Assembly (NCBI GenBank): GCA_046292765.1
Contig: JBKBQA010000009.1
Coordinates: 7,061 to 71,060, forward strand
Direction: 5' to 3'
Length of the DNA stretch: 64,000 nucleotides
Origin: Alcanivoracaceae bacterium
GTDB taxonomy: Bacteria; Pseudomonadota; Gammaproteobacteria; Pseudomonadales; Alcanivoracaceae
Shown here in pieces: positions 2,011 to 46,024 of this stretch. The notes under the pieces were generated by a model. That model had not been told where the DNA came from, did no database searches, and saw nothing but the letters and a program-made list of their open reading frames with translations. A program made the position numbers and the translations under genes. Numbering within the stretch: position 1 is the first letter of the stretch; every line of letters begins with the position of its first letter.

Positions 2011-3080
2011 TCGCCCCGGCGGATCGTCAGGTGGCGATTGAGTTGATTGCTGAAGCGGTGGCCGCCGGTGCGCGGCGACACAAGGCCTGTGGCGTATTGG
2101 ATATTACCGTGCGCACGCTGCAACGCTGGGAATCTGCGCTGCAGGCGGGCTCTCTGGACGATCAGCGCAAGGCAGCGGGCGCTTGTCGCACGCCGGGTAA
2201 CAAGCTCAGCGAGTCGGAGCAACAGCGTGTGCTGGAGATCTGCAACGAGCAGGAATATGCCAGCTTGCCGCCGAGTCAGATCGTCCCGCTGTTGGCGGAT
2301 CGAGGCGATTATGTGGCTTCTGAATCGACCTTTTACCGGGTGCTGCGAGCGGCAGATCAGGTGCATCGGCGAGGCAAGGCAGCAGCGCCGAGAGAAGTCG
2401 CCAGGCCGCAGAGCTATCTGGCCGAAGGGCCGAACCAGGTATGGAGCTGGGACATTACCTTTTTAGCGTCGAGCATCAAGGGCATGTTCTATCGACTGTA
2501 CCTGGTCATGGATGTGTTCAGCCGCAAAATTGTTGGCTGGGAAGTGCATCCTGATGAAACGGCCGCGCAGGCGGCAACCGTGATACGCAAGGCCTGTCTG
2601 GCGGAAGGCGTTCACGAGGGCGGACTGGTGCTGCACTCGGACAACGGAGGGCCGATGAAAGGCGCGATGATGCTGGCAACCTTGCAGAAACTTGGCGTGG
2701 TGCCTTCGTTCAGTCGGCCGTCGGTGAGTGATGATAATCCCTACTCCGAAAGCCTGTTCCGAACCATGAAGTATCGCCCCGAATATCCGGCGAAGCCGTT
2801 CGAGAGCATTGAGGCAGCAAGAAAGTGGGTGCATGCCTTTGTGCAGTGGTACAACCACGAACATCGACACAGTGGGATCCGTCATGTGACACCGGGCCAG
2901 CGTCACAGCGGAGAAGAAAAGCAGATATTGGCAGCGCGCCAGGCGCTATATCGAGCCGCCCGGCAGCGTATGCCGGAGCGTTGGTCAGGTAAGATCAGGA
3001 ACTGGAACCCGGTGGCGGCCGTCTGGCTGAATCCACCGAAAGAACATCAGGCTGACTCACAGCAAAATGAGGCAGCCTGA
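2007..3080 (+). CDS. IS3-family transposase OrfB (DDE/rve integrase core), probably made as an OrfAB fusion
   Basis: Lies in the -1 frame relative to OrfA. DDE region: WSWDITF ... LHSDNGGPM ... DNPYSESLFRTMKY ... WYNHEHRHSGI. Confidence 0.9.
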   Translation: MIAPADRQVAIELIAEAVAAGARRHKACGVLDITVRTLQRWESALQAGSLDDQRKAAGACRTPGNKLSESEQQRVLEICNEQEYASLPPSQIVPLLADRGDYVASESTFYRVLRAADQVHRRGKAAAPREVARPQSYLAEGPNQVWSWDITFLASSIKGMFYRLYLVMDVFSRKIVGWEVHPDETAAQAATVIRKACLAEGVHEGGLVLHSDNGGPMKGAMMLATLQKLGVVPSFSRPSVSDDNPYSESLFRTMKYRPEYPAKPFESIEAARKWVHAFVQWYNHEHRHSGIRHVTPGQRHSGEEKQILAARQALYRAARQRMPERWSGKIRNWNPVAAVWLNPPKEHQADSQQNEAA

Positions 3081-3107
3081 TTGGTAGACGCGACAACTAC
3101 GTTGACA

Positions 3108-3825
3108 ATCGCCGGTCCTCGGCGAACGATGATTCTACTGTCTCGACAAAAGCGACCCGGTTCTCGCGTATTACCGAGATAAGAGCAGCAATATCGTGGA
3201 GGTGGCGGATCATCGCCGGATCGTCTGCGGCCAGAGCCCTGTCGCGCTTCAATACACGCCAAGTCAATGCGCTAAACTTATCAGCAGCGGTTTCTACCGG
3301 TGACAAATACAGAATCTCTACCTCAGGCTCCGCCCCGGAATACTGCGCTACAAATGAGTGAATCTTTCTGGACTCAGCCTGAAGTCTAGGCTGTGTAAAA
3401 CTAAACTCGATTTTCAGGCCGGCACGCAAAGCAGGGTTTGCTTCATGATTTTGAGGGTAACCAAGATCAAACTTGACGTAGTTGCTGGCTGCGGCAACAC
3501 GCACCCTGTCCAACACCAGCAAATCGACAGCCTCAACCGCATCAAGAATACCTTCACGATAATCCCTTCTGGCCCTCTTCATCTCGCCGCCAGTTCCTGA
3601 GCGCAGAGCAAGGCAACGAAAGTCCATATCCTCGGAAAAGCGCTGTATCAGACCATAGGCCTTTGAGAGACTTGTTCCGCCGGAAAAAATTGTACGGAAG
3701 CCATCACTTTCATGAGCAGCAATCGCCTTAAGCGCCTGTACGGAGTACCAGTCCTTCTCTACAAAGGCAGAACTGATACCCATCTCTGCCGCGACTTCCT
3801 CAACAACTTCGGGATCAGGAGACAT
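3108..3825 (-). pseudogene. N-terminal ~240 codons of a nucleotidyltransferase AbiEii/AbiGii-family toxin gene, truncated by the IS
   Basis: MSPDPEVVEEVAAEMGISSAFVEKDWYSVQALKAI...FSGGTSLSKAYGLIQRFSEDMDF is the AbiEii (DUF1814) N-terminal signature. The track ORF reads 11 nt into the IS right end and stops there (..RRLST*). The start could instead be 3849 (MASQ). Confidence 0.8.
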
Positions 3826-15151: not shown

Positions 15152-18100
15152 TTAGCTACGACGCCTGATCAGTAGCAGACCGGAAAATAAGAGAGCCCAG
15201 AATGTCACGCCCCCCGCCAGCTTGTTTCTGTTCGGATAAACGACACGAAATTCTGCCGCCGTTTCAGACCCACACTCGTCAGCTATCGACAGCACAAAGC
15301 GATCATTAAACTCGGTTTCGAATGTTCGCGGAGTATAAGTGACAGTTCTAGCGACAGGATCCACAATCAGCCCGAGGCCCTCCAGCCCGGGCACGGGGCC
15401 ATCCGCAGAAGAGTCAATCGCACCAACCCCCTCGACCCCGAATACCAGAAACCTCTCCTCATCCACTCCCTCAATCTGAACCACGCGACGACTCACAGCT
15501 GCAAACTTCGGTGCCTCGCGCATAGTAATGGAGGTTAAATCCAAAGGCAGTCCCTCTGGAAAGGCAAGGTCGCCATCCGGGTCAATAGCATCAAGATCAA
15601 AAACCACCGACTCGCCAGCTCGAGAGTTCACAGTCCTCGACTTGAACTGCGGCGGCACATTAACAATTCGAACGGAAACCTCGGCCGGCTCTGAAACAGT
15701 CAAACCCGACACATCATTAAAGGAGTGAAACCTGTAACTAAACGTTTCCTGCACTCCGGCCTTTAGCTCCTCACATGTGAGAGGACCCGGGTCAAAAAGA
15801 ACAATACAATCCTCACTGTTCTGCGGAGAGCCTGGCTCGCCGCCACATGCAGATTCGCTTGCAGTGAGCAGGGTCCTACCGATACTTTGCTCGTCGATAA
15901 AGAGCTCAATTTCAACGCCATTCTCCGCATCTGATGTCCCAAATATCCTGAGAGCACCATTAGTGGTGATGAAATCATTGGAATCAGGACCGTCATCGTC
16001 CTGAAGCCCGTCGATACTGAGGAGGGAAGATGAAACAACCGACGGTCTATCTGACTCCAACGGCACCGCGCTAGACCGGACATAAACTGTTTGTCTCGCA
16101 CTAGCCACTGCCCTTCCGCTGCGATCACGCAGCAATGCGACAAGGTCGTACTCCCCTTCAGACAGCAACACAGCAGAGTGATCAAAGCTCCAGGTGCCGT
16201 TCGGCACACGCTTCACGGTAAAATTTCCGGTGCCATTGGATCTTGGAAAAGTAGCCAGCCCCGTTGTCGCGACCGTATCTGGATCGAGGTCAATCGCCCC
16301 TCTCAGCATAATGTTGGCAGCAGTGCCCCCGGCTCCATCCGGCACGCCATCGCCGACCAGATCATTGGCAAGTACATTGACTCTCGCTCTGCGATCAAAT
16401 CGAATCTGATTCCCACCCTGATCATCAATGGCCGTTGGCACCTGCAGCTCGTAAGCGCCACGATCACAAACCCCGCCCGAAAGTCGAGACTGCCCACGGA
16501 GGTCCAAAGAACGACAAGCTCGAGGGGTGCCATCGCCGGCAGCCAGATCGAGATTACTGTTTCCGGCATCCACCAAAAGCGGGAAAGCCGGATTGCCAGA
16601 CTCTAGAATCAAGACGGGAAAATGGGGAGGAATGAACGCGCCGTCAGCAGAGTATGAGTAGCCTGATAGCACCGCGCCATTAAGCACCGCCTCAATATCA
16701 GAAAGTGCAGCAACGTCGTTGCTCTGACTCGCCGCAGGCACCGCCGGGATACAACCAAGAGGGATAACAGAGTCGAACAGATTGTAATAACTCTCTTTCA
16801 ATAGAGCGCTACCAGAAGAACAATCTCCAGACCCGGCATAAACCGAGTTTGACATCTGTACATTGCCGAGTGTGTCGCCAAGCTCGATTGCCCCTGCGGC
16901 AGCGCCAGGATCATTGAGGATCGTAGAATTCAGAATGTATGCCGTGACGGAACTATCCAGTTGCTGGAGATCCATCGCCGCACCTTCCGCCGCGCTGTTG
17001 CCGGAAAAGGTGCTATTGATGACTCTCAAGCTACCCCCTTTGGGAAGGTTGATATCAAGAGCGCCGCCAGCTTGTGCAGCCGAGTTGGTTTCGAACGTTG
17101 AGGACTCGATACGAATATCATGCCGCTGGTTCTGACCAACCATTGACAACACGCCACCATTCGATCCAGCACTGTTGCCTACAAAATGACTGCGTCGAAG
17201 CAGAACCGATCTGCGAAGATCCGAATTGTAATTAAGATAAATTGCCCCGCCCGATCCAGCAGCCGCGCTATCACGCACGACAACGTTATCGAGAGTCAAG
17301 CTGGCATTAGTAAAGATAGCACCACCGTTGCCAGCAGAAGCACCGCCTTCCAAAGTTAAATTACGAAGAGTCATGCCTGAGCTGGCCAGAATGAGCCTAT
17401 CAAGACCGTTGCCAGAAATAGTTGTCTTCTCGGGCCCCAACCCCTCGATATCAACCAATGAGTTCTCAACCACTAGTTGGGCATCAAGCTGAATAGTACC
17501 TTCCACCTCGATGACAATCCGATCCCTGCCCGTCGCACCCGGCATACAATCAGGGACAAAGAAGGGCGATCGATCAATGCTGGCCCTCAACGCTTCCCTG
17601 AGGGTGCAAAAGCCATCAATATCATCATTGTCTGCAAGGCTATTCACCCTGATCTCAGCAGCCCCCACCGCACCAATTGCCAGCAAAGAAACGGCCGCCA
17701 AGACAAACTGCCTGCCAAACCATTGCCGCCAACGCAGGATCATCATTGCCACTCCAAATATCAGACCAAACCCGCCTGCGCCTGACAACGTTGAGATATT
17801 TTCTTTACTGGTGAGACCCGAGGCGGGCTGAACAACCAGATTAACGTTTGCTGAAGGCCCGACCCCTGCGTAGGTATCCCCTATCACTGCGAATCGGTTA
17901 ATCGTATAACGGAACTGATCTACGCCATGAAATGCGGGAACCGAAGTGTAATGCACCATGGGGTACCCTAACGGCACCACCTCACCATCAGCAGACAACA
18001 TCACGCCGTCACCGACCAGAACTTCCAGCACCCCCCGGGAGGGCATCAATGGAAAGACAACACAATCAACCTCTGGATTGAAAGGCCCACCATCGGCGGG

Positions 18101-20188
18101 ATCTACGAAAGCAAGCCTGCCGCAATCTATATCCAGATCTCCAATGTCGTTCTTGGCGACATCCACTACGCTACGAACCCCCTGAACGACCACAAACTCA
18201 TCACGCACACCGGCGGCAATCTGAAGCTCAATTGCCCCCGCATCGCATCTTGGCTCCCGATCAAGGTCCCGTTGATCGCGACTTTCACATACATTGGGTC
18301 CCACTGCATCTTCGGGACTACCAAAGCCAAATACCGAAGGCGCACCAAATGCTCTCGGTGCATTGTTTGGAAGAAAACCGATAAACCCGCCCTCGAACAC
18401 TCGAGGCAGGCAACCTACCGACCCGGGCAATGACGGATCACAGACAAATTTCCCGACACTCCCTGGGCTAGCGGGATCGACTCCGACAAGCAGACTGTAG
18501 TCAGCAAAAGCGTAATCAATAGTCTCCAGCGGGTCATCAGACGCAAACTGTTCGTCAAGGGGGCCACATGATGCTCCCGCACTTACAACATACTCGATCT
18601 GAGCGACATCAAGAGTGCTACCGTCATTAATCATAGCTGGGCCATCATCTGCAGCGCAGTCACCACCCTCATTTCCAAGAATTACACTGTTAAGTATCTG
18701 ATCCAGTGAGTCTGACATGGCGGTTGTTATGCCATAGGAAAGAGCCACTCCACCGTCATTTCCTGCAATAGTGATATTGTTCAGACGCGTCACGCGCGCG
18801 CTTGCTCCAACCCGCATTGCAGACCCGTCAACGGCTTGGTTTCCATAGAATGTTCCGTTGACCAGAAGCAGCGCTATACGATTCGGAGTGTCGGCCAGAT
18901 GAATCGCTCCACCCGCACCGGATCCCGCGACATTCCGGTAGAAGTGAAAACGTGCACCGCTTACTGAGCCTTCAAAGTCCGGAGATGTTGCTATGGCACC
19001 CCCATCTTCACTCGCCTCATTATTCTCGAATCTGGCCACCTCGAATGAAACATTTCTGTTCCCACCCGCATAGATGGCGCCGCCAGATCTGGCCCGCCCC
19101 CCTGAAAGAATTGCGCCTCTACCAACCTCTAGCGCCCCTTCAGTAAATACAAGCCCTCCATCCTGAGGTCCAATATCATTGTCGTCCGGATTTCCCACCA
19201 TGGAAGTGTTGTATACGAGCAAACTGGCACCAGGGAATACACGGAATACCCTGCTTCCCGTCGATGCAATAATCTCGACATTTTTCTTGGCGGCGTTATC
19301 AAATGGCGTTTCTTTTCTCGGCTCAATCCGCACCACGGGGCTTACACTATTGCCCGCAAGATTTAGCCCTCCTCCAACAGAAAGCTCTCCATCGACAAGA
19401 ATGTACTCAACCGCAGACTCATCAGAGCTCAGGGGAAAAGATTTGAGAAAAATAGAGTTTGACAGGGATCCAGCAGGGCACTCCGCCTCAACAAAGTACT
19501 CTATATCACTCTCGTTCGCGGGAGGAGGCACGTCTTCAGACGTGACCTCATTGTCACCCTTCTGGACCTGAATCTGAAAGACGACTTGCGCCGAGGCGCC
19601 CTCACGAATCAAACCAGGCACAGCATCAGGACTATCTTCTGCGAGACCCTTGGGACTGTTTATCTCCAAACCCGCCCCGGAGAGAGGGAACAACAGCCCG
19701 GGAAGATCCTCTACTGCACTTCCATTCAGCGTCGTTGACCCGGACAAATAAGTGGACTTGTAACCTTTAAAGTCTGGAAACAACGGGTTCTGATCAGGGA
19801 ACAGGTAGCCGATAGTAACCCCTTCCGCATCACCGAACCCAACCCTCGCTCTCACCGTAATCCGATACTCGATGGTGTCACCTCGTCGCGCAACAAGCCT
19901 CTCACCTGCGGTAACGAGCTGACTGCCGCGAGATACATTAATAACGCTTTTGGTAAACGCCAGATTGCCACCGGAATGGCTCAGCTCCACACCGAGGACA
20001 TCAGTGAAATGTCCGCCGATATGCCCTCGCTGCGTATTTATGGCCAGCAACGCCTCGCGGAGAGAGCAGAAGCCATCTTCTGCAATGACATCATCTCTGG
20101 TGCTGATCGAATAGTTGGTCGCCCATGCGCTCACGGACAACACAGAGAGGACAAGTGTAGCGACCAAAATTGAACTACGGTGGAACAT
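15152..20188 (-). CDS. Giant secreted protein of two tandem CSLREA/right-handed beta-helix modules, each with a GlyGly-CTERM-like tail
   Basis: 1678 aa. Signal peptide, DGFCSLREAL at residue 41 and DGFCTLREAL at residue 861, GGAI repeats, CDAGAIELQ / CDRGAYELQ motifs, and a final tail LAGGVTFWALLFSGLLLIRRRS. AT-richer than its neighbours. Confidence 0.85.
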   Translation of the reverse strand: MFHRSSILVATLVLSVLSVSAWATNYSISTRDDVIAEDGFCSLREALLAINTQRGHIGGHFTDVLGVELSHSGGNLAFTKSVINVSRGSQLVTAGERLVARRGDTIEYRITVRARVGFGDAEGVTIGYLFPDQNPLFPDFKGYKSTYLSGSTTLNGSAVEDLPGLLFPLSGAGLEINSPKGLAEDSPDAVPGLIREGASAQVVFQIQVQKGDNEVTSEDVPPPANESDIEYFVEAECPAGSLSNSIFLKSFPLSSDESAVEYILVDGELSVGGGLNLAGNSVSPVVRIEPRKETPFDNAAKKNVEIIASTGSRVFRVFPGASLLVYNTSMVGNPDDNDIGPQDGGLVFTEGALEVGRGAILSGGRARSGGAIYAGGNRNVSFEVARFENNEASEDGGAIATSPDFEGSVSGARFHFYRNVAGSGAGGAIHLADTPNRIALLLVNGTFYGNQAVDGSAMRVGASARVTRLNNITIAGNDGGVALSYGITTAMSDSLDQILNSVILGNEGGDCAADDGPAMINDGSTLDVAQIEYVVSAGASCGPLDEQFASDDPLETIDYAFADYSLLVGVDPASPGSVGKFVCDPSLPGSVGCLPRVFEGGFIGFLPNNAPRAFGAPSVFGFGSPEDAVGPNVCESRDQRDLDREPRCDAGAIELQIAAGVRDEFVVVQGVRSVVDVAKNDIGDLDIDCGRLAFVDPADGGPFNPEVDCVVFPLMPSRGVLEVLVGDGVMLSADGEVVPLGYPMVHYTSVPAFHGVDQFRYTINRFAVIGDTYAGVGPSANVNLVVQPASGLTSKENISTLSGAGGFGLIFGVAMMILRWRQWFGRQFVLAAVSLLAIGAVGAAEIRVNSLADNDDIDGFCTLREALRASIDRSPFFVPDCMPGATGRDRIVIEVEGTIQLDAQLVVENSLVDIEGLGPEKTTISGNGLDRLILASSGMTLRNLTLEGGASAGNGGAIFTNASLTLDNVVVRDSAAAGSGGAIYLNYNSDLRRSVLLRRSHFVGNSAGSNGGVLSMVGQNQRHDIRIESSTFETNSAAQAGGALDINLPKGGSLRVINSTFSGNSAAEGAAMDLQQLDSSVTAYILNSTILNDPGAAAGAIELGDTLGNVQMSNSVYAGSGDCSSGSALLKESYYNLFDSVIPLGCIPAVPAASQSNDVAALSDIEAVLNGAVLSGYSYSADGAFIPPHFPVLILESGNPAFPLLVDAGNSNLDLAAGDGTPRACRSLDLRGQSRLSGGVCDRGAYELQVPTAIDDQGGNQIRFDRRARVNVLANDLVGDGVPDGAGGTAANIMLRGAIDLDPDTVATTGLATFPRSNGTGNFTVKRVPNGTWSFDHSAVLLSEGEYDLVALLRDRSGRAVASARQTVYVRSSAVPLESDRPSVVSSSLLSIDGLQDDDGPDSNDFITTNGALRIFGTSDAENGVEIELFIDEQSIGRTLLTASESACGGEPGSPQNSEDCIVLFDPGPLTCEELKAGVQETFSYRFHSFNDVSGLTVSEPAEVSVRIVNVPPQFKSRTVNSRAGESVVFDLDAIDPDGDLAFPEGLPLDLTSITMREAPKFAAVSRRVVQIEGVDEERFLVFGVEGVGAIDSSADGPVPGLEGLGLIVDPVARTVTYTPRTFETEFNDRFVLSIADECGSETAAEFRVVYPNRNKLAGGVTFWALLFSGLLLIRRRS

Positions 20189-20308
20189 GCTGTGACTCCG
20201 GCCGTTACCGGCCTGTTCTGGTTGTTATTGTAAGACGCGCGACTATAAAGCCTTATGGCACACAGAGTTAGCGCACCGAGTGTATCCCGCCCTCCCGGGA
20301 GCCGGCTG

Positions 20309-21022
20309 TTATAGTTTTGTAAGGCTGATGCCGCCGGGCGCCGGCTCCACTGCCCGGATAAACGGAATCGTCAGGCGCCGCTGGTGAGCCATTGCGAGGC
20401 CATCCAGCCGGTCCACTTCAGCGCAGATGGCTGCGGCATTGCGGGCGGTGCGGGCCATCAGGTAGCGGGCCGCCTCATCACTGATATCCAGCCCCGCAGC
20501 AACCCCTCGCTGCCTGATCAGCGCCACCAGCCCCTCATCGCCCAGTGGTCGCAGCTGCCAGACCGGGCCAGCGGCCAATCGCGAGGCCAGATCCGGCAAG
20601 GCGAAGCCGCACCCGGCCGGCGCAGCTCTGGCGGCGAACACCATGGCCCCGCCCCGATCACGCACACTGTTGTACAGATGAAACAGGGCTTCTTCCCACT
20701 CCGGACGCGCCGCCAGCAGATCGACATCATCCACCGCGACCAGATCAAACCGCTCCAGCCCCTCCAGTACCGCCGGTGACAGCGACCGAAGCTCTCTGCC
20801 TGAGAGAAAACACCCCGTCTCGCCTCGCTCGCGCACCGCGCCTTCCAGCAAGTGGCTGCGGCCAGTGCCGGCTTCACCCCACAAAAACAGCTGGCCCTGG
20901 GCGCACTCGGCCAGCTCGGCAAGCGCCGCCAGCAGCAACCCGTTGTCGCCGGCAATGAAGGAATCGAGACTGCTTGCTCCACGCAGCCGCAGCGCCAGTG
21001 CCAGTTGAGGGGAGCGGCTCAT
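20309..21022 (-). CDS. hda: DnaA regulatory inactivator Hda
   Basis: 237 aa. LWGEAGTGRSHLL is an AAA+ Walker A. Conserved position next to DUF2066 and purMN. Confidence 0.9.
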   Translation of the reverse strand: MSRSPQLALALRLRGASSLDSFIAGDNGLLLAALAELAECAQGQLFLWGEAGTGRSHLLEGAVRERGETGCFLSGRELRSLSPAVLEGLERFDLVAVDDVDLLAARPEWEEALFHLYNSVRDRGGAMVFAARAAPAGCGFALPDLASRLAAGPVWQLRPLGDEGLVALIRQRGVAAGLDISDEAARYLMARTARNAAAICAEVDRLDGLAMAHQRRLTIPFIRAVEPAPGGISLTKL

Positions 21023-22056
21023 GGGCGCACGGTCTCGCGCCAGCAGAGCTGTACTGACGGGGCCCCGGCGTCAGCGGAAGCGGCAGTGTGAGAGCAAGGG
21101 CCAAGGCGTGCATCCAGAGACAGCAGCGCTCCCAGTTGCTCCGGGTGGCCACTGAAGGTCAGATCCAGTATCAGCCGGCTACGGTCGATCGAGGCAACCT
21201 GAAAATCCTTGACCCCGGCCAGCGACTGCACGTGCTGGGTAACTGCTCGCCAGTCGTCCAGCGAGCCGATCCCGTCAACCACCAGCCGCTGGGCGATGGC
21301 CTCTCCGGGACGGACAACGTAGCGCGGGGCGATCAAGCCGGTGACGCGGTCCACCAGCAACCTGATCGCCTCCTGCTCATCGGCGGCATCGATTTGCCCG
21401 CTCTCCTCGACCCGCTGCTGATGCAGCATGCGCCAGCGCAGCTGGGGAGCGGCTCCGGGGTAAAGCACTGCGGCAACGACAAAGGGGGCCCGATAGCGAT
21501 CAGAGCCCCGCATCAGCACCTGATCAAAATGCCCGCGGATATCCGCTGCCTGAACCGCCGCCAAATCCTCCGCGTCCATCGCTGGCATCACCAGCGGCAG
21601 ACCGCGGGCAGCGGCGGCGTCGGCGAGGACGCGGGCCGCCGGGTCACTGCTCTGACGAGACAGTATCTCGCCACTGACAGAACGCTGGATAACCAGCCAG
21701 AACAGGGTGTCGGGCCGGCTCAGGGTCCATACCGGGGAGCCACGCTGTTCCAGCTGTCGCATCAGCACCGGCACATCAAAGCGGATGGTCAGCAACAACT
21801 CGTCAGCTGAAGCATCGTAGGAAAACTGCTGTGCCCAGCGGGAGGCGTCGGCCAACAACGGCGCCAGCGAGGCGTCACTGGCACTGGCCCGGTCTCCGGT
21901 GAGGCGTACCAACACCTGCCGCAACCCCTCTGACAGCGCCTTCTGGCGCGCTTCGGTGCTGCGATCGGCCACCGCCACCCGGACTTCCCCGAGGGGCGAG
22001 GCATGGAGCCCCGGGACACAGCACAGCAGCAGGATGACAGCGAGCAGAGTTCTCAT
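21019..22056 (-). CDS. DUF2066-like secreted protein
   Basis: Start taken at MRTLLAVILLLCCVPGLHA (signal peptide). Conserved synteny between hda and purM. 4-bp overlap with hda. Confidence 0.7.
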   Translation of the reverse strand: MRTLLAVILLLCCVPGLHASPLGEVRVAVADRSTEARQKALSEGLRQVLVRLTGDRASASDASLAPLLADASRWAQQFSYDASADELLLTIRFDVPVLMRQLEQRGSPVWTLSRPDTLFWLVIQRSVSGEILSRQSSDPAARVLADAAAARGLPLVMPAMDAEDLAAVQAADIRGHFDQVLMRGSDRYRAPFVVAAVLYPGAAPQLRWRMLHQQRVEESGQIDAADEQEAIRLLVDRVTGLIAPRYVVRPGEAIAQRLVVDGIGSLDDWRAVTQHVQSLAGVKDFQVASIDRSRLILDLTFSGHPEQLGALLSLDARLGPCSHTAASADAGAPSVQLCWRETVRP

Positions 22057-22245
22057 GAATCCTTCGTCCGGTACAGGAAAGCGCGTCATTATCCACAACC
22101 GGGCCCAGCTGTGCAGCCGGTCCGATGCAGAGTCTGGGTGCTGAGAGGCAAAACCGGGGGCGATGGTTCAAATTAGCTGCACGACATGGCTGAAATCCGG
22201 CCCCGCGCTGCTAGAATAGCCGCCCTCGCCAACCCGGAGCCCAGC

Positions 22246-40635: not shown

Positions 40636-40661
40636 AGCGCGAGTTGTTAAGCGCGCTTTTT
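40636..40661 (+). terminator. Candidate terminator after slt, overlapping the stop codon of the convergent gene
   Basis: AGCGCG / CGCGCT stem followed by TTTT. Confidence 0.45.
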
Positions 40662-42425
40662 CGCGGCCATATAGGCGCGCCAGCCACCGAATGCCGTAAT
40701 GTCCTCGGCACCTTGTACTCCGCCCTGCTCACAGATAAATCCCGTCACCTCGCGCCCATCCTCCAGCAGCACCTTGCCAATCCCGAGTGGAGAGGGAATG
40801 CCGGCAACAAAGCTGCCGAGCTGCGCTTCGGGCAGAGACCAAACCTCGACCTCGATTGCTGCACCACCCGCATCACGCACCATTGCCGGACGAAAAGGCG
40901 GACCACCGGGCAAGGCATAAAGGCGGTAACAGGGCGCACTGCGCGTGGCAGTCACCAGCCAGCCGAACCGGGAAACAAGTTGATGATTGAGCGGCATGCC
41001 GGAAAGGTGGGCGCCACACACCGCCACTTCCACTCGTGCTGGCAACGAAAGCGGAGCCTGTGGACGCAACCGATGCCCGCAGGCACCGAGGGGCTGATCA
41101 AGCGCCAGCAGCCAGCGTTGCGCTAACGCCAGCAATGCCTCGTCGGTAAATGCTGGCGCCGCCAGCGTAACGCCAAACGGCAGGCCTGCGGATGTCATGC
41201 CGGCAGGCACCGCCAGCGCACACATATCCAGCAAATTCATAAAATTGGTGTAATAGCCCAGCTCACTGTTGCGCTCAATCGGTGCAGTCATGACCTCCTG
41301 AATGCGAAAGTGGCGGCCCGCCGTCGGTGTCAGCAGCAGGTCAAACTCCGCGAGCACGGCGCGAGCCTGTGCCCGCAACGCCATCAGCCGATACTCATGA
41401 CGAAAATAATCCGCAGCCAGCGGCTCGCCACCCGTTCCAATAATATCGCGGATCACCGGCAGCACCGTCTCCGGTGCATCACGCAGCGTTGCTTCAGCGG
41501 TGAGCCAGCGCTCCGTCACCCAGGGCCCTTGATAGAGCAGCGCCGCCGCCTCGATAAATGGGGAGAAATCCACTTCCGTCACACTGGCGCCGAGTGACTT
41601 CCAGCGCGCCAGCGCACTGGCAAACAGCTGTGGATACTCGGCATCGCCAAAAAAAGCCAGTTGGCTTTGCATGGGCACCGCAATACGGGGCTGGCGTATA
41701 TCAACCGTTCGCGGTACATCGGCACGGCTGTAGTCATCGTCCGCATCCTGTCCCTGCAGCAATGCACTGATGATGGCGGCATCCTGAGGATCAATCACAA
41801 ACAGTGACGGACAATCCAGCGTACGACAGGCCGGCACAATGCCGTGACAGGACCAGCGTCCCCGAGTCGGTTTGATACCAATAATATTGTTGAACGCCGC
41901 AGGCACCCGGCCGCTGCCTGCGGTATCGGTGCCGAGCGCAAAGGTGACCTCCCCCAGCGCCACCGCCACCGCCGAACCGGAGCTGGACCCACCGCTGATC
42001 ATGGCCGGATCAAAGGCATTGCGGGTAACACCATAGGGTGAACGGGTGCCGACCAGCCCGGTGGCAAACTGATCCATGTTGGTTTTACCCAGCGGAATGG
42101 CGCCAGCCTCGATCAGCGTGGCAACGATGGTGGCAGTATGCGATGGAGTGTAGGCAAAGCCCTTGCAGGCAGCGGTGGTTGGCACCCCGGCCAGATCAAT
42201 GTTGTCCTTGATCGCAAACGGGATACCAAACAGCGGCAGCGTGTCCGGCGAATGGCCATCAAGACGATCCAGTATCGGCTTCAATGCCCGATTATCGAGC
42301 ACCGTGATCCAACCATGGTGCTCGGCATGGGCCTTGATACGCAGCTGCAGTTGATCCACCAGTGCCCGCGGCGTCAAGGTACCCTGCCGATACAATTGAT
42401 GCAGGTCCGTAATCGACATCTTCAT
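40647..42425 (-). CDS. atzF: Allophanate hydrolase (amidase signature family)
   Basis: Start taken at MKMSITDL, 2 nt after the carboxylase stop. Amidase motif GGSSSGSAVAVA and a C-terminal allophanate-hydrolase extension. Confidence 0.9.
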   Translation of the reverse strand: MKMSITDLHQLYRQGTLTPRALVDQLQLRIKAHAEHHGWITVLDNRALKPILDRLDGHSPDTLPLFGIPFAIKDNIDLAGVPTTAACKGFAYTPSHTATIVATLIEAGAIPLGKTNMDQFATGLVGTRSPYGVTRNAFDPAMISGGSSSGSAVAVALGEVTFALGTDTAGSGRVPAAFNNIIGIKPTRGRWSCHGIVPACRTLDCPSLFVIDPQDAAIISALLQGQDADDDYSRADVPRTVDIRQPRIAVPMQSQLAFFGDAEYPQLFASALARWKSLGASVTEVDFSPFIEAAALLYQGPWVTERWLTAEATLRDAPETVLPVIRDIIGTGGEPLAADYFRHEYRLMALRAQARAVLAEFDLLLTPTAGRHFRIQEVMTAPIERNSELGYYTNFMNLLDMCALAVPAGMTSAGLPFGVTLAAPAFTDEALLALAQRWLLALDQPLGACGHRLRPQAPLSLPARVEVAVCGAHLSGMPLNHQLVSRFGWLVTATRSAPCYRLYALPGGPPFRPAMVRDAGGAAIEVEVWSLPEAQLGSFVAGIPSPLGIGKVLLEDGREVTGFICEQGGVQGAEDITAFGGWRAYMAAKKRA

Positions 42426-42427
42426 AC

Positions 42428-45400
42428 TCACTCCTCCCTGATTACCAGTAACACCTGTCCCGGTGCAAGGGGCGTGCCGGGTTCGCACAGTACCCGCACG
42501 ACTTCACCGCTGATATGACTGTGCACCGGAATTTCCATCTTCATCGACTCGATAATGGCGATGGTGTCACCTTGCGCCACCCGTTGACCGACGGCCACCG
42601 GCACCTGCCAGAGACTGCCTGGCACACTGCTGCTGACCGCATGCTCGTTGTCGCCGAGTTGCGTGTCTTCGACACTGGCGCCCACTTCTTCAATGCTGAC
42701 CACATCCTGACCGGCCGCCGCCCAGCGTTCGCGCTCGGCGTCAAAGGCAGCCTGCTGACGGGTCTTGAAAGTACTGATGCTGTCCTCCTCACGCGCCAGA
42801 AAGGCGTTGTACTCGCGCAAACTGAAGCGGCTGTCCTCGATCTTCAGTGACGCCCGGCCTCGGGGGAAATCCTCGCGCCACTGCATCAGCTCTTCGTGGG
42901 ACACCGGATAGAAACGCAGCTGGTCAAAAAAGCGCAGCAACCAGGGCGCGTCCTTGCTGAACTCGGCGGTTTGATGCCAGCTGTTCCACATCTGGATGGT
43001 GCGACCAACAAATTGGTAGCCACCTGGCCCCTCCATACCGTACACGCACAGGTAGGCGCCACCAATGCCGACCGCATTTTCCGGCGTCCAGGTTCGGGCA
43101 GGATTGTACTTGGTGGTGACCAGACGATGACGGGGATCCACCGGGGTCGCCACCGGCGCACCAAGATAGACATCCCCCAGCCCCATCACCATGTAGCTGG
43201 CCTGAAAAAAAATCTTCTTCACTGCCTCGATATCATTCAGACCATTGATGCGCCGGATAAACTCGAGATTGCTCGGACACCAGGGCGCATCCTTGCGCAC
43301 AGACTGCATATACTTTTCGATCGCCAGCCTGCACTGTTCGTCATCCCACGAAATCGGCAGGTGAACAATGCGCGATGGCACTTCCATGTCTTCGATGGCG
43401 GGCAGCGCGCCTTCCGCCTGCTGCAGAAGATCAAGCAATCTCGCCTGCGCCAAAGTCAGGTTGTCGTAGTTCACCTGCAACGAGCGTATGCCGGGGGTGA
43501 GCTGGACAATGCCGTCGATATCCGCCCGCTGCAGCCATTCCATCAAGGCATGGACACGAAAGCGCAGATTCAGATCGAGCATCTGTGGCCCGTACTCGAC
43601 CAGAATGTTGTCATCGCCGGAGGCGCGGTAAACCACCGCGACTTCACCGTCCGCACGGGAAGCCAGCACCGGTGAAGTACGACCAACGCAGATCTCCACC
43701 GGCTCAGGCTCGCTCAGCGCCGCGATGGACTCATGCTGCTGGCGCTCCAGTGCCTCGGCACTGGCCTGATCCACCGGCACAAAACGGATCCGGTCGCCGG
43801 CACGCAACTGGCCCAGCACCCACAGATCCGCCTTGATGATGGTGACCGGGCAGACAAAGCCCCCCAGGCTCGGGCCGTCCGGGCCAAGGATCACTGGCAT
43901 ATCACCGGTAAAATCCACCGCGCCAATAGCGTAAGCATTGTCGTGAATGTTGGACGGATGAAGGCCGGCCTCACCGCCATCACGACGCGCCCAGTCCGGC
44001 TTCGGACCAATCAGGCGGATGCCGGTGCGACTGGAGTTGTAATGCACCTCCCAGTCGGTGGCAAAGAAGGTGTCGATATCCTCTTCGGTGAAAAAATCCG
44101 GCGCGCCGTGCGGGCCATAGATCACCCGCAGGGTCCAGTGGTCGGTCAGCGTCGGCTTGAGGTTCTCCGCCAGATTTCCCGGCAAATCGGACGCCAGCAC
44201 AGATGATATTTCACCGGGATGCAGCACATCACCGGCCCGCAAGGCCCGACCTCCATGGCCGCCAAACTTGCCGAGGGTAAAGGTGCTGCGCGAACCGAGA
44301 TAGGCAGGCACATCGATGCCGCCGGCAACACAGAGATAGGTGCGACTGCCCGCCCCTTTAACCGTGGCAAAGTTTACCTCGGCACCGGCAGGAATCTGGT
44401 GCACCTGGCCGTTGGCCAGCGCCGCACCATTGCAGCGGGCCTGCATGTCAGCACCGGTGATGGCGATTCGGGTGGCATGACGAAAACGCAACCGGGCGCC
44501 GGTCAGGGTCATTTCCAGCCCGGCGGCCTGTTCATCATTGCCCAACAAGCGGTTTCCCAGTCGCAAACTCAGGGCATCGCAGGGACCAGAGGGCGGCACA
44601 CCCACATCCCAGTAGCCGACCCGACCGGGCCAGTCCTGCACCGTGGTCAGGGTGCCGCCATCCAGCACCTCAATGGCGCGGGACAGAAACGGAAAGTCAT
44701 TCAGAAAGGCAGTGGTCTGTTGACCATTCACAAAGCTATCGCTGACCACCACCTGACGCAGCCAGGCCAGATTGGTTTCGATACCACTTATACGGCTGTC
44801 ATTGACCACCTGACTAATGGCCGCAAGGGCGCGGCTACGGTCCCGCTCATGAACAATCAGCTTGGCCAGCATCGGATCATAAAATGCCGGCACCTCAAGC
44901 CCGGCCGTGGCCCAGGTATCCACGCGAATATGGTCGGGAAATTGCACCTCGGTCAGCAAGCCCGCCGCTGGCTGAAACTGTTTGCCCGGATCTTCGGCAT
45001 ACAATCGGACCTGAATCGCATGACCGGTCGGGCGATAAACGAAACCATCAAGGAAACTGCTGTCCCCGGCCGCAAGCCGCACCATCCATTCGACCAGATC
45101 CACACCACTGACCATCTCGGTAACCCCATGCTCCACCTGCAGCCGGGTGTTTACCTCGAGAAAATAGAATTTTTCGTCGGTATCGTCGTAGATAAACTCC
45201 ACGGTTCCAGCGTTACGGTAGCTTACCGCTTCGCCAAGCCGCACCGCGGTCGCACACATGGCCTGACGTACCGACTCGGGAAGATTCGGCGCCGGCGTTT
45301 CCTCCACAACCTTCTGGTTACGACGCTGCAGCGAGCAGTCACGCTCACCGAGACTGACCACCCGCCCCTCACCATCGCCGAAAATCTGCACCTCGATATG

Positions 45401-46024
45401 GCGGGCGCGCTCGACAAATTTTTCCAGAAACAGCCCGTCATTACTGAAGTTATTGCGGCTCAGACGCTGCACCGAGGAAAACGCATCACGCAGCTGGGCG
45501 GCGTCATAGCAGCGCTGCATGCCGATACCGCCTCCGCCGGCAGTGCTCTTCAGCATTACCGGAAAGCCAATCACAGCGGCGCGGGCAACAGCATCCTCGA
45601 CATCAATCAATAGCCCGGAACCGGGCAGCAATGGCACACCACTCTGCTGGGCCAACGCGCGCGCGGTATGCTTGAGGCCAAAAGCAGATATCTGCTCGGC
45701 CAGGGGGCCAATAAAGACAATCCCCGCCTGCTCACAGGCTGCAGCAAAGTCCAGGTTCTCACTGAGAAAGCCGTAGCCGGGATGAATCGCCCCGGCACCG
45801 CTTTGCCTCGCCGCAGCGATCACCTTGTCAAATGACAGGTAGGTGTCCACCGCCAGCGCCTCACCGAGGCAGATCGCCTCATCGGCCTGCTGCACATGGA
45901 GCGAACCGGCATCGGCGCGACTGTACACAGCCACCGATGCAACCCCCATTTTCTTCAGGGTACGCTGGATGCGGACGCTAATGGCGCCACGATTGGCAAT
46001 CAGCACTTTTCCGAACATGGTCAC
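42428..46024 (-). CDS. Urea carboxylase family enzyme; guanidine carboxylase by context
   Basis: 1198 aa. Biotin carboxylase N-terminus (KVLIANRGAISVRI), KipA/KipI-like carboxyltransferase region, and a biotinyl motif IIESMKMEIP. It lies in a guanidine-I riboswitch operon. Confidence 0.93.
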   Translation of the reverse strand: MTMFGKVLIANRGAISVRIQRTLKKMGVASVAVYSRADAGSLHVQQADEAICLGEALAVDTYLSFDKVIAAARQSGAGAIHPGYGFLSENLDFAAACEQAGIVFIGPLAEQISAFGLKHTARALAQQSGVPLLPGSGLLIDVEDAVARAAVIGFPVMLKSTAGGGGIGMQRCYDAAQLRDAFSSVQRLSRNNFSNDGLFLEKFVERARHIEVQIFGDGEGRVVSLGERDCSLQRRNQKVVEETPAPNLPESVRQAMCATAVRLGEAVSYRNAGTVEFIYDDTDEKFYFLEVNTRLQVEHGVTEMVSGVDLVEWMVRLAAGDSSFLDGFVYRPTGHAIQVRLYAEDPGKQFQPAAGLLTEVQFPDHIRVDTWATAGLEVPAFYDPMLAKLIVHERDRSRALAAISQVVNDSRISGIETNLAWLRQVVVSDSFVNGQQTTAFLNDFPFLSRAIEVLDGGTLTTVQDWPGRVGYWDVGVPPSGPCDALSLRLGNRLLGNDEQAAGLEMTLTGARLRFRHATRIAITGADMQARCNGAALANGQVHQIPAGAEVNFATVKGAGSRTYLCVAGGIDVPAYLGSRSTFTLGKFGGHGGRALRAGDVLHPGEISSVLASDLPGNLAENLKPTLTDHWTLRVIYGPHGAPDFFTEEDIDTFFATDWEVHYNSSRTGIRLIGPKPDWARRDGGEAGLHPSNIHDNAYAIGAVDFTGDMPVILGPDGPSLGGFVCPVTIIKADLWVLGQLRAGDRIRFVPVDQASAEALERQQHESIAALSEPEPVEICVGRTSPVLASRADGEVAVVYRASGDDNILVEYGPQMLDLNLRFRVHALMEWLQRADIDGIVQLTPGIRSLQVNYDNLTLAQARLLDLLQQAEGALPAIEDMEVPSRIVHLPISWDDEQCRLAIEKYMQSVRKDAPWCPSNLEFIRRINGLNDIEAVKKIFFQASYMVMGLGDVYLGAPVATPVDPRHRLVTTKYNPARTWTPENAVGIGGAYLCVYGMEGPGGYQFVGRTIQMWNSWHQTAEFSKDAPWLLRFFDQLRFYPVSHEELMQWREDFPRGRASLKIEDSRFSLREYNAFLAREEDSISTFKTRQQAAFDAERERWAAAGQDVVSIEEVGASVEDTQLGDNEHAVSSSVPGSLWQVPVAVGQRVAQGDTIAIIESMKMEIPVHSHISGEVVRVLCEPGTPLAPGQVLLVIREE

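Follow-up and report, generated by a model that had tools for sequence, protein, structure and literature searches.

On the minus strand of the window (the whole 64-kb stretch of DNA analysed), positions 15152..20188 hold one gene for a two-module precursor of 1678 residues; every feature given below lies on that strand. The gene begins with an ATG at 20186-20188, 7 nt downstream of a Shine-Dalgarno-like GGAG seen in the sequence (20196..20199), and closes with a stop codon at 15152-15154. The N-terminus of the protein, MFHRS, is conserved among homologues. Translation of the ORF gives two colinear modules with an identical order of elements: a signal-peptide-like start, a CSLREA motif, a beta-helix of GGAI repeats, a CDxGAxE motif, beta-sandwich domains and a tripartite tail. 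An earlier note on this DNA had listed these elements and proposed two complete CSLREA/choice-of-anchor-Q modules, each with its own export start and tripartite tail; all of the listed elements were found in the translation, and the proposal is supported. In current annotation such genes bear just the names 'CSLREA' or 'choice-of-anchor Q domain-containing protein', with no description of the internal junction.

Module 1 opens with a signal-peptide-like segment at residues 1-23 (20120..20188; MFHRSSILVATLVLSVLSVSAWA, followed by T24), a sequence pattern kept in 20 homologues, after which we infer cleavage (SAWA|T24). The passenger, residues 24-801 (17786..20119), is supported by an AF2 model, a fold match and HMMs, and consists of a CSLREA helix, an inserted beta domain of about 280 residues, a right-handed beta-helix of GGAI-type units (GGAIYAGG, GGAIATS and GGAIHLAD), the closing motif CDAGAIE, and a beta-sandwich with a linker. 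Its CSLREA motif, DGFCSLREAL, occupies residues 38-47 (20048..20077), with the cysteine at position 41, and the choice-of-anchor-Q closing motif occupies residues 648-654 (18227..18247), within CDAGAIELQ at residues 648-656. The AF2 model of this module has a pLDDT of 78. Its best fold match in the PDB is rhombotarget A (RbtA; 9cdv/9cdu), with an E-value of 1e-5, a probability of 1.0 and a TM-score of 0.55-0.56, and the modelled N-terminal beta-helix domain has an RbtA-like fold.

The passenger of module 2, residues 844-1656 (15221..17659; AF2 model and HMMs), has a CSLREA helix, a beta-helix of GGAI-type units (GGAIFTN, GGAIYLN and GGALDIN), the motif CDRGAYE and several Ig/cadherin-like beta-sandwich domains. 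The second CSLREA motif, DGFCTLREAL, lies at residues 858-867 (17588..17617), its Cys861 being residue 47 counted from M815, and the second closing motif at residues 1241-1247 (16448..16468), within CDRGAYELQ at residues 1241-1249. The model of module 2 (pLDDT 84) has weak fold matches to beta-helix depolymerases and lyases and to cadherins; RbtA is absent from its top matches. A tblastn search of plasmids with module 2 returned unrelated choice-of-anchor-Q and IPTL-CTERM proteins only.

The domain assignments made in the earlier note hold at the level of the whole protein, where both models score above their cutoffs of 25 bits and each does so in two stretches: CSLREA_Nterm (TIGR04214), just after the signal peptide, with 39.1 bits and choice_anch_Q (NF041518) with 37.8 bits. 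The POMP/Chlam_PMP repeat models also match the whole protein. When the modules were scanned singly, module 2 exceeded each cutoff, with 25.7 and 25.2 bits, whereas module 1 fell short at 17.0 and 15.1 bits, despite carrying an exact CSLREA motif. The homology of the two halves is shown by BLASTP (E 6e-9, 27% identity over the beta-helix), and their signal/CSLREA starts and CDxGAxE ends match in separate alignments. The halves have no repeat in common at the DNA level and just 27% protein identity, on which grounds a recent tandem duplication of the modules was rejected.

RbtA, whose gene adjoins that of a rhombosortase, has the TIGR04212 layout of a signal peptide, an N-terminal CSLREA region, a right-handed beta-helix, a C-terminal domain and a tail made of a Gly motif, a hydrophobic segment and a basic cluster. 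Each of our modules has a like layout to RbtA of Acinetobacter baumannii (PDB 9CDV/9CDU), and the RbtA model (GlyGly_RbtA, TIGR04212) scores 86.7 bits on the whole protein, 46 bits on module 1 and 53 bits on module 2. However, the whole-protein score falls short of the equivalog cutoff of 295 bits, the identity is only 18%, and there is no sequence-level PDB match; searches of the PDB with the protein and with the family profile gave nothing useful. The present protein also differs in joining two such units, plus extra domains, into a single chain, and in that its gene is not beside a rhombosortase gene at the loci examined.

Where the two modules meet, a sorting-tail-like segment runs directly into a signal-peptide-like one. 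The first, as read from the sequence, spans residues 802-822 (17723..17785) and consists of SGAGG, 12 hydrophobic residues (FGLIFGVAMMIL) and RWRQ, so that SGAGG-FGLIFGVAMMIL-RWRQWFGR covers residues 802-826. The second spans residues 823-843 (17660..17722) and consists of the basic WFGR, the hydrophobic FVLAAVSLLAIGA and VGA, followed by A844; its hydrophobic stretch covers residues 828-843, and signal peptidase is predicted to cleave at VGA|A844. Residues 819-843 have the Sec/signal peptidase I pattern of a basic n-region, an h-region and small residues at -3 and -1. The Arg cluster between the two stretches reads as both the basic end of tail 1 and the n-region of a second signal peptide. 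At the other end of the protein, residues 1657-1678 (15155..15220; LAGGVTFWALLFSGLLLIRRRS) form a second sorting-tail-like segment in the sequence, with LAGG, VTFWALLFSGLLLI and RRRS. This second tail is at the extreme C-terminus, ending at residue 1678, and the first is internal, with 850 residues beyond it.

The junction pattern is kept in 34 of 34 distinct family members although its sequence varies: a Gly/Ser motif, about 12-15 hydrophobic residues, an Arg cluster, a hydrophobic stretch of 15-21 residues and AxA|A(D/E). Measured from the last basic to the first acidic residue, the internal signal spans 15-21 residues in these 34 proteins, with a median of 17. The predicted -1 site, two residues before the acidic one, is Ala in 28 of the 34 and Ser in 4; the remaining 2 are register shifts that by inspection likewise have Ala at -1. 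Position -3 is A, V, L or I in 31 of the 34. Like a sorting tail, the segment ahead of the Arg cluster has a short hydrophobic stretch, 12 residues long in the window protein, that follows helix-breaking Gly. The tripartite arrangement of Gly/Ser motif, helix and basic cluster is present in both tails of the window protein and in all 34 internal and 32 terminal tails of the family. By inspection, the internal and terminal tail motifs covary between clades (GSxGW/GSxGY versus LGxxG/DFLG).

The two-module fusion is a conserved gene architecture and not an error, because one uninterrupted two-module ORF, always with this junction, is found in more than 30 homologues (25-73% identity) and also in raw DNA from 11 species-level genomes. 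Twenty of the homologues are full-length at 43-73% identity, and more are found at 25-39%. They have two CSLREA motifs, mostly two CDxGAxE motifs, the internal hydrophobic pair and the terminal hydrophobic stretch. Stop-to-stop ORFs are 1426-1755 residues long in the 9 named or MAG genomes that hold the whole gene on a contig, and two more run off the end of a contig. In no family member are the modules separated by a stop codon. That two adjacent genes were merged when a stop codon was lost through a sequencing or assembly error has nothing in its favor beyond the unusual architecture, and we rejected it with near certainty: an identical protein is encoded on an independent Logan contig, and the same ORF recurs, in assemblies made independently, in more than 30 homologues with identities as low as 25%. 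The earlier note did not address whether the fusion is real; its conservation is the main finding of this analysis.

A single ORF could still yield two products if module 2 were translated separately from M815/M816, with the long frame resulting from read-through of two overlapping cistrons. The window gene does have GGAG (17752-17755) 5 nt before an in-frame ATG ATG (17741..17755), a possible internal start in this genome only. From there, MMILRWRQWFGRQFVLAAVSLLAIGAVGA|AE would make a textbook signal peptide, and one family member (P0023) retains a fossil-looking 'M-ARRLMSS...AQA|AE'. None of 11 relatives, however, has a Shine-Dalgarno sequence with a start codon at the junction, and three have no ATG there at all, which rules out a conserved internal start; module 2 must therefore normally be exported within the full chain. 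Since there is neither a conserved start nor, in any family member, a stop between the modules, full-length translation still occurs and must be dealt with. We consider separate translation of module 2 improbable.

To which class of sorting signal the tails belong is a matter for the family as a whole. The earlier note had placed both in the GlyGly-CTERM class; that model is indeed the best match to tails at both positions across the family, but the two tails of the window protein fall short of it, with no match even at E<=10. At E<=0.1, GlyGly_CTERM is the top sorting model for 11 of the 34 internal and 10 of the 32 terminal tails (21 of 66 in total). When homologue tails were tested singly, 4 of 10 passed the cutoff of 15.5 bits (16.2, 18.4, 18.1 and 22.6 bits). 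As a control, we removed the Gly/Ser/Ala residues before the hydrophobic core; the matches fell from 21 of 66 to 1 of 66, so the match depends on the Gly/Ser motif.

These results can also be explained if the tails serve some other sorting system, known or unknown, with the polyprotein logic otherwise unchanged. Both tails of the window protein, like two thirds of those in the family as a whole, are below the GlyGly_CTERM model; some family tails weakly match the MYXO-CTERM, GC_trans_RRR, LPXTG and PVV-CTERM models; and a distant clade has a distinct conserved terminal motif, LG(I/L)DFLG. Against this, GlyGly_CTERM is the most frequent match at both positions, other GlyGly-CTERM family tails (SVAGG, MprA_tail and RbtA) match too, and the fold and HMM similarity to RbtA points the same way. 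The MYXO-CTERM motif has an invariant Cys. On inspection, Cys is all but absent from the motif region of the family tails, and LPXTG, PEP and IPTL motifs are absent altogether. A system other than rhombosortase seems to us distinctly unlikely.

We propose that the gene encodes a single precursor that acts as an exported polyprotein, moved by Sec and cut by signal peptidase and a rhombosortase into two surface proteins, a reading to which we give a probability of roughly 0.55. The N-terminal signal would carry module 1 across the inner membrane via Sec; tail 1 would halt transfer, with its Arg cluster staying in the cytoplasm; the next hydrophobic stretch would re-insert N-in/C-out and restart translocation, now of module 2; and tail 2 would halt transfer once more. 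Signal peptidase I would then cleave after A23 and after A843, and a rhombosortase-type intramembrane protease encoded elsewhere would cleave each tail at its Gly motif, in the way that RssP cuts VesB, possibly with attachment of lipid. Both passengers would go to the cell surface, probably by type II secretion, in a fixed 1:1 ratio, leaving a hairpin of about 40 residues (about 807-843) behind in the membrane. All of these cleavages are predicted from sequence patterns. The stronger claim, that signal peptidase I and a rhombosortase-type protease together resolve one Sec substrate into two separately anchored surface proteins (a 'sorting polyprotein'), we hold more tentatively, at a little under even odds. 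Several observations weigh against the polyprotein model: only about a third of the family tails match GlyGly_CTERM, those of the window protein not among them; tail 1 is not C-terminal, and about 25 residues would still follow it after the signal peptidase cut; no rhombosortase was found in the window or beside the gene in the relatives examined; and Alcanivorax borkumensis SK2 was absent from the carriers in a pattern-based scan. An adhesin or a glycan-acting beta-helix is the candidate role of both passengers.

The same chain might instead stay whole in the inner membrane as a protein of about 175 kDa, with the three hydrophobic stretches after the signal as permanent spans, the junction as a helical hairpin and the two domains tethered in the periplasm. 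Such a topology is self-consistent, with the Arg clusters inside and both passengers outside, and it agrees with the failure of the window tails to match GlyGly_CTERM, processing being deduced from sequence. The details of the junction, however, fit a permanent hairpin poorly: the first stretch has just 12-15 or so hydrophobic residues after a Gly-rich motif, and the second has the length of a signal peptide (15-21 residues) with a small-x-small end conserved in 34 of 34 members, which a plain span does not need. The GlyGly_CTERM matches are motif-dependent, and proteins of the RbtA type are surface proteins (PMC12643943). We regard an unprocessed membrane protein as unlikely, if the least unlikely of the alternatives to the exported polyprotein.

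Parts of the exported-polyprotein arrangement have counterparts elsewhere. Viral envelope polyproteins such as bunyavirus Gn/Gc and flavivirus prM-E-NS1 have a stop-transfer helix and, after it, an internal signal peptide that host signal peptidase cuts. The logic is like that proposed here, with a stop-transfer span, a short basic loop in the cytoplasm, a re-insertion signal, a small-x-small site on the lumenal or periplasmic side and two ectodomains from one chain, but those proteins belong to the eukaryotic ER, are non-homologous and are without a sortase-like second cleavage. Among bacteria, the Bradyrhizobium FbcH cytochrome b/c1 precursor is a membrane polyprotein that signal peptidase splits at an internal signal peptide; it is unrelated to the present protein and has no sorting tail, and its products remain in the inner membrane. 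Repeated CSLREA...CDxGAxE units in one polypeptide are also found in choice-of-anchor-Q concatemers of three (P0032) and four (P0033) modules. In contrast to the two-module family, no hydrophobic junction lies between their modules, which are connected directly (..CDIGAVE-linker-..CSLRDA..), and the concatemers look like single multi-domain proteins, not precursors of several. GlyGly-CTERM cargo such as Vibrio cholerae VesB likewise has a Gly-rich motif, a short membrane helix and a basic cluster (PMC3237569, PMC6219818, PMC13393428); known cargo, however, has one tail at the extreme C-terminus, whereas here one of the two lies within the chain, with a second signal peptide immediately after it.

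The enzyme that would cut the tails is not encoded nearby. As the earlier note had stated, the 64-kb window holds no processing enzyme, and we found no other tailed cargo or rhomboid-like ORF within it. A search for rhombosortase (TIGR03902) found none in the window and none in 660 kb of related loci, the sole match being the Shewanella plasmid used as positive control, and no relative's locus that we examined has a rhombosortase next to the gene. An rrtA query, recovered by tblastn on plasmids from a 15-residue peptide printed in PMC3237569, found Shewanella only and no Alcanivoracaceae, and a search with a GC-rich rhombosortase representative, which lies on a metagenome contig, likewise found no Alcanivoracaceae; the 150 representatives examined carry no taxon labels. 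RssP cuts VesB after Gly-Gly, and the cargo is displayed on the surface through the T2SS (PMC13393428, PMC6219818). According to PMC3237569, rhombosortase accompanies the GlyGly-CTERM signal in 104 of 108 genomes, and the 4 listed as lacking it do not include A. borkumensis SK2, which has 3 GlyGly-CTERM proteins. SK2, the one Alcanivorax with documented GlyGly-CTERM proteins, was absent among the carriers of the two-module gene in a pattern-based scan that also missed I. indicus.

The literature on bacterial internal signal peptides and polyproteins yielded nothing relevant to sorting signals. To our knowledge, position at the very end of the protein is what defines C-terminal sorting signals (LPXTG, PEP-CTERM, GlyGly-CTERM and others), and each known cargo has one gene, one signal peptide and one tail. 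We are aware of no other sorting signal, whether for a sortase, an exosortase or a rhombosortase-like system, that lies inside a protein, and of no other means by which 1:1 co-display of two surface proteins is built in. In our reading, a whole family has kept a pair of cargos within a single reading frame while diverging to as little as 25% identity. If the chain is processed as we predict, a GlyGly-CTERM-type signal is recognized away from the C-terminus and a rhombosortase-type enzyme acts on a non-terminal tail, giving bacteria a counterpart to viral envelope polyprotein processing and a simple route to equal amounts of two surface proteins. The family would be a ready-made natural substrate for probing rhombosortase recognition.

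The composition of the gene sets it apart from its surroundings: its GC content is 0.532 and its GC3 0.508, compared with GC of 0.61-0.67 in the neighbors and GC3 of 0.64-0.76 in 23 other genes of the window. The earlier note was right that the gene is lower in GC than its neighbors, but the adjacent DUF2066 gene is at 0.655, not 0.68 as given there. From this contrast, and from the position between sthA and hda, the note had concluded that the gene looks horizontally acquired, a conclusion that does not survive comparison with relatives. No tRNA (the nearest is 4.8 kb away) and no flanking repeats are present at the borders of the gene, and the low GC3 is common to the orthologues in all 8 relatives measured, which counts against recent transfer. 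The note had held that the same gene in the sthA-hda slot of all relatives, at native GC content, would refute its reading; the slot is indeed shared, which is essentially that case, although the GC3 of the orthologues is low and not native in all 8 relatives measured. Synteny and the shared GC3 depression together rule out recent transfer. The gene occupies a conserved DUF2066-hda-X-sthA slot across Alcanivoracaceae, directly after DUF2066-hda in 12 related genomes and with sthA downstream in 9; the set comprised Alcanivorax sp. 1008, Isoalcanivorax indicus, A. profundi, A. nanhaiticus, Alcanivorax sp. DP30 and several Alcanivoracaceae MAGs. Even on a contig whose copy is only 26% identical, the gene is again directly after DUF2066-hda. 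The Alcanivoracaceae that carry it are oil-degrading marine bacteria.

The minus-strand ORF at 15152 to 20188 (1678 codons) has GGAG 7 nt upstream of its ATG, and its N-terminus, MFHRS..., is kept in all close homologues. An earlier note, made from the sequence alone, had described two CSLREA/beta-helix proteins within this one frame, and we found each element it claimed in the translation, twice and in the order claimed: signal-peptide-like starts (residues 1-23 and 815/819-843), DGFC(S/T)LREAL motifs (Cys41 and Cys861), GGAI-type repeats in both modules, closing motifs (CDAGAIE at 648-654 and CDRGAYE at 1241-1247), beta-rich domains in each module, and tails made of a Gly motif, a short hydrophobic stretch and a basic cluster (802-826 and 1657-1678). 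Two NCBIfam models, CSLREA_Nterm (39.1 bits) and choice_anch_Q (37.8 bits), exceed their cutoffs (25 for both) on the full-length chain with two stretches each, in line with the family proposed, and an HMM scan also matches POMP/Chlam_PMP repeats. Scanned alone, module 2 (residues 844-1656) is above cutoff for both CSLREA (25.7 bits) and choice-of-anchor-Q (25.2 bits), and module 1 (residues 24-801) is below it for both (17.0 and 15.1 bits). The homology proposed for the two modules is borne out by a match across the beta-helix at 27% identity (E 6e-9); no DNA-level repeat was found between the two halves of the gene. Judged by their sequences, the halves are homologous but old.

Our main result is that this fusion of two modules is real and conserved. 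A homologue search that took in 5.8 billion proteins returned about 20 full-length relatives (43-73% identity, 1670-1770 aa) and two further clades, one shorter (31-36%, about 1430 aa) and one distant (25-31%). Motif and hydropathy scans gave the same order in every relative, namely signal, CSLREA, CDxGAxE, hydrophobic pair, CSLREA, CDxGAxE and terminal hydrophobic stretch; the strict CDxGAxE pattern overlooked one or both copies in four members. In a pattern-based scan of one genome per species, which missed I. indicus, the gene was present in Alcanivoracaceae MAGs, Alcanivorax sp. 1008, A. profundi, A. nanhaiticus, Alcanivorax sp. DP30 and one unclassified Pseudomonadota MAG. The two-module protein is 54-57% identical in the closest named genome, and SthA from the window is 84% identical to SthA of several Alcanivoracaceae members. 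We give practically no weight to the idea that the long frame is an artefact, since it is uninterrupted from stop to stop (1426-1755 codons) in the raw DNA of the 9 of 11 genomes in which a contig spans the whole gene, the gene running off the contig end in the other two, and since the identical protein occurs on an independent Logan contig. In no family member are the modules separated by a stop codon. We regard both the architecture and its conservation as secure.

With the family alignment as input, AlphaFold gave confident models of both modules (pLDDT 78 for module 1 and 84 for module 2). The top PDB match of module 1 is the crystal structure of rhombotarget A (RbtA) from Acinetobacter baumannii (9cdv/9cdu; E 1e-5, probability 1.0, TM 0.56, 18% identity); RbtA is described as residing on the cell surface and as having a beta-helix domain at its N-terminus (PMC12643943). 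Module 2 is modeled as a right-handed beta-helix followed by Ig/cadherin-like domains, with weak structural matches to tailspike depolymerases, PL6 lyases, AlgE epimerase and cadherins; there were no sequence-level matches to solved structures. Each module thus looks like an RbtA-type surface protein. Although module 1 shares the RbtA fold in the model, we rejected membership of the two-module protein in the RbtA equivalog family, because the whole protein scores 86.7 bits against the rhombotarget-A model, far under its 295-bit cutoff.

The gene is AT-richer than its surroundings, as had been noted earlier, with a GC of 0.532 and a GC3 of 0.508 against a GC3 of 0.64-0.76 in 23 other genes of the window. 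The horizontal acquisition proposed for it, however, did not survive comparison with relatives. With X standing for the two-module gene, the order purN-purM / DUF2066-hda-X-sthA is kept in Alcanivorax sp. 1008 and I. indicus, hda-X-sthA is kept in seven further genomes, and in a relative with just 26% identity the gene lies directly after DUF2066-hda. GC3 of the orthologues is 0.45-0.61 against 0.65-0.73 for hda, and is depressed in all eight genomes measured (loci L007, L009 and L011-L016). Given the conserved slot, this common depression, and borders that hold no tRNA or repeat, we rejected a recent insertion; in this gene the low GC is old and has been maintained. The DUF2066-hda block, which is immediately before the two-module gene in every relative examined, lies at 20309-22098 on the minus strand, divergent from purM-purN, and its two genes overlap by 4 nt (21019-21022). 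Elsewhere on the minus strand (40647-46024), the gene for an allophanate hydrolase shares about 60 nt, as listed, with a urea carboxylase-type gene of 1198 codons (42428-42488); the GTG start of the upstream ORF was probably called too early.

We compared 34 distinct junctions from the family and found that the sequence is nearly free to vary while the pattern is fixed. A linker (..EPxSGLT..) leads to a Gly/Ser motif, after which come about 12-15 hydrophobic residues and an Arg-rich cluster. Then follow another hydrophobic stretch and AxA|A(D/E)I.VN, which in most members lies about 14-25 residues ahead of the second CSLREA Cys. The distance that separates the last basic residue from the first acidic one is 15-21 residues (median 17, 34 members). 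The predicted -1 residue is Ala in 28 of 34 and Ser in 4, the other two being register shifts of the count with Ala at -1 by inspection, and 31 of 34 members have A, V, L or I at the predicted -3 position. By these features the second hydrophobic stretch matches a Sec/signal-peptidase-I signal peptide in both shape and length, and does not match a stable membrane span. Beyond the predicted cut, AEIRVNSLADNDDIDGFCTLREA aligns to CSLREA_Nterm from model position 2; in ordinary CSLREA proteins, that model starts where the mature chain starts. The first stretch has 12 residues in the window protein and is preceded by helix-breaking glycines, as in sorting tails. The predicted topology is coherent, with module 1 out, the Arg cluster in, module 2 out and the terminal Arg cluster in; in it the one internal Arg cluster has two roles, forming the positive-inside end of tail 1 and at once the n-region of signal 2.

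In one homologue, P0023 from a MAG of Alcanivorax sp., the junction is extended by about 25 residues and includes 'M-ARRLMSSVAVLMLCAGAQA|AE', which resembles a relic start codon followed by a complete signal peptide. Because of this relic-like start codon, we suggest that two neighbouring genes fused to give rise to the family. While CSLREA/choice-of-anchor-Q beta-helix proteins, GlyGly-CTERM-type tails and the RbtA-like fold were already known, what appears to be new is their conserved head-to-tail fusion via a junction of sorting tail and signal peptide; we found no description of one in the full-text literature on rhombosortase/GlyGly-CTERM, CSLREA, rhombotarget or internal signal peptides of bacterial polyproteins. 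Two other multi-module CSLREA proteins, P0032 and P0033, carry CSLREA...CDxGAxE units in 3- and 4-fold concatemers without hydrophobic junctions, and concatenation of modules is therefore common in the superfamily and only the junction is special. At its C-terminus P0033 has one Gly-Gly, then a hydrophobic stretch and a basic cluster.

The best-supported reading, to which we assign a probability of roughly 0.55, is that the protein is an exported polyprotein, with processing that we infer. Sec export would begin at signal 1, tail 1 would halt transfer and signal 2 would resume export. Signal peptidase would cleave after A23 and A843, and a rhombosortase-type protease at both Gly motifs, in the manner of RssP, which cleaves VesB at its Gly motif (PMC13393428). 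The outcome would be two surface proteins at a fixed 1:1 ratio and a residual hairpin of about 40 residues; viral envelope polyproteins would be the closest mechanistic analogues of such a precursor. We think an unprocessed inner-membrane protein with three spans unlikely, because the first stretch is short and flanked by Gly and because the AxA site is conserved. Independent translation of module 2 from M815/M816 would draw on GGAG 5 nt before an in-frame ATG ATG (17741-17755, minus strand), inside the first hydrophobic stretch; we hold it improbable because none of 11 relatives has a Shine-Dalgarno sequence with a start codon at the junction, and three lack any ATG there. As this arrangement was seen in the source genome and in 0 of the 11 relatives, a separate module 2 product is possible in the source genome.

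The GlyGly-CTERM class proposed for the tails is the best-matching sorting class at the level of the family but not for the window's own two tails, which GlyGly_CTERM (TIGR03501, cutoff 15.5 bits) does not match and which give weak PVV-CTERM and MYXO-CTERM matches instead. Across the family this model is the commonest sorting model at both positions, matching at E<=0.1 11 of the 34 tails that are internal and 10 of the 32 that are terminal, and 4 of 10 homologue tails tested singly reach its cutoff (16.2-22.6 bits). Tail regions of other GlyGly-CTERM families (SVAGG, MprA_tail, RbtA) match family tails too. As a control, we replaced only Gly/Ser/Ala among the eight residues that precede the hydrophobic core, leaving the helix and Arg cluster intact; matches dropped from 21/66 to 1/66, so the match depends on the motif and not merely on 'helix plus RRR'. 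By inspection, nearly all family tails lack a Cys in the motif region (Cys is invariant there in MYXO-CTERM), and LPXTG, PEP and IPTL motifs are absent from all of them. Also by inspection, internal and terminal motifs co-vary between clades (GSxGW with AGSxGY; LGxxG with DFLG in the distant clade), as would be predicted if a single enzyme reads both tails. That the polyprotein logic holds with a different sorting enzyme seems to us rather doubtful, slightly more so than the three-span protein. Distant-clade members (P0028, P0029, P0034, P0041 and locus L017) have a conserved acidic stretch and ..DDL(S/G)D.LG(I/L)DFLG.. ahead of the terminal tail, where the main clade has GSxG; this may be a variant signal or another kind of sorting signal.

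As the earlier note had stated, the processing enzyme is absent from the window, which contains neither a rhomboid-like ORF nor any further tailed cargo. We scanned 724 kb, including the gene flanks in all relatives, with a rhombosortase HMM built from 30 sequences, and the sole match was the positive control, the annotated rrtA of a Shewanella baltica plasmid (E 6e-70). Haft and Varghese reported that genomes with several cargos have the cargo genes far from the enzyme gene (PMC3237569), and a lack of rhombosortase near the two-module gene fits that distance. Searches of protein databases led to no Alcanivoracaceae rhombosortase. The one pointer to such an enzyme is the literature on A. borkumensis SK2, which has three GlyGly-CTERM proteins and is absent from a list of four genomes without rhombosortase (PMC3237569); SK2 was not among the carriers found by the pattern-based scan that missed I. 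indicus. On a metagenome contig (L085), a rhombosortase (P0263, 6001-6651) lies divergent beside a gspG-N type II secretion operon, an adjacency that fits the reported type II secretion dependence of GlyGly-CTERM cargo. On the 117 kb plasmid pSbal01 of Shewanella baltica OS155 (L005), the annotated rhombosortase gene lies at 2689-3285 between queC and uvrB, which are usually regarded as chromosomal housekeeping genes.
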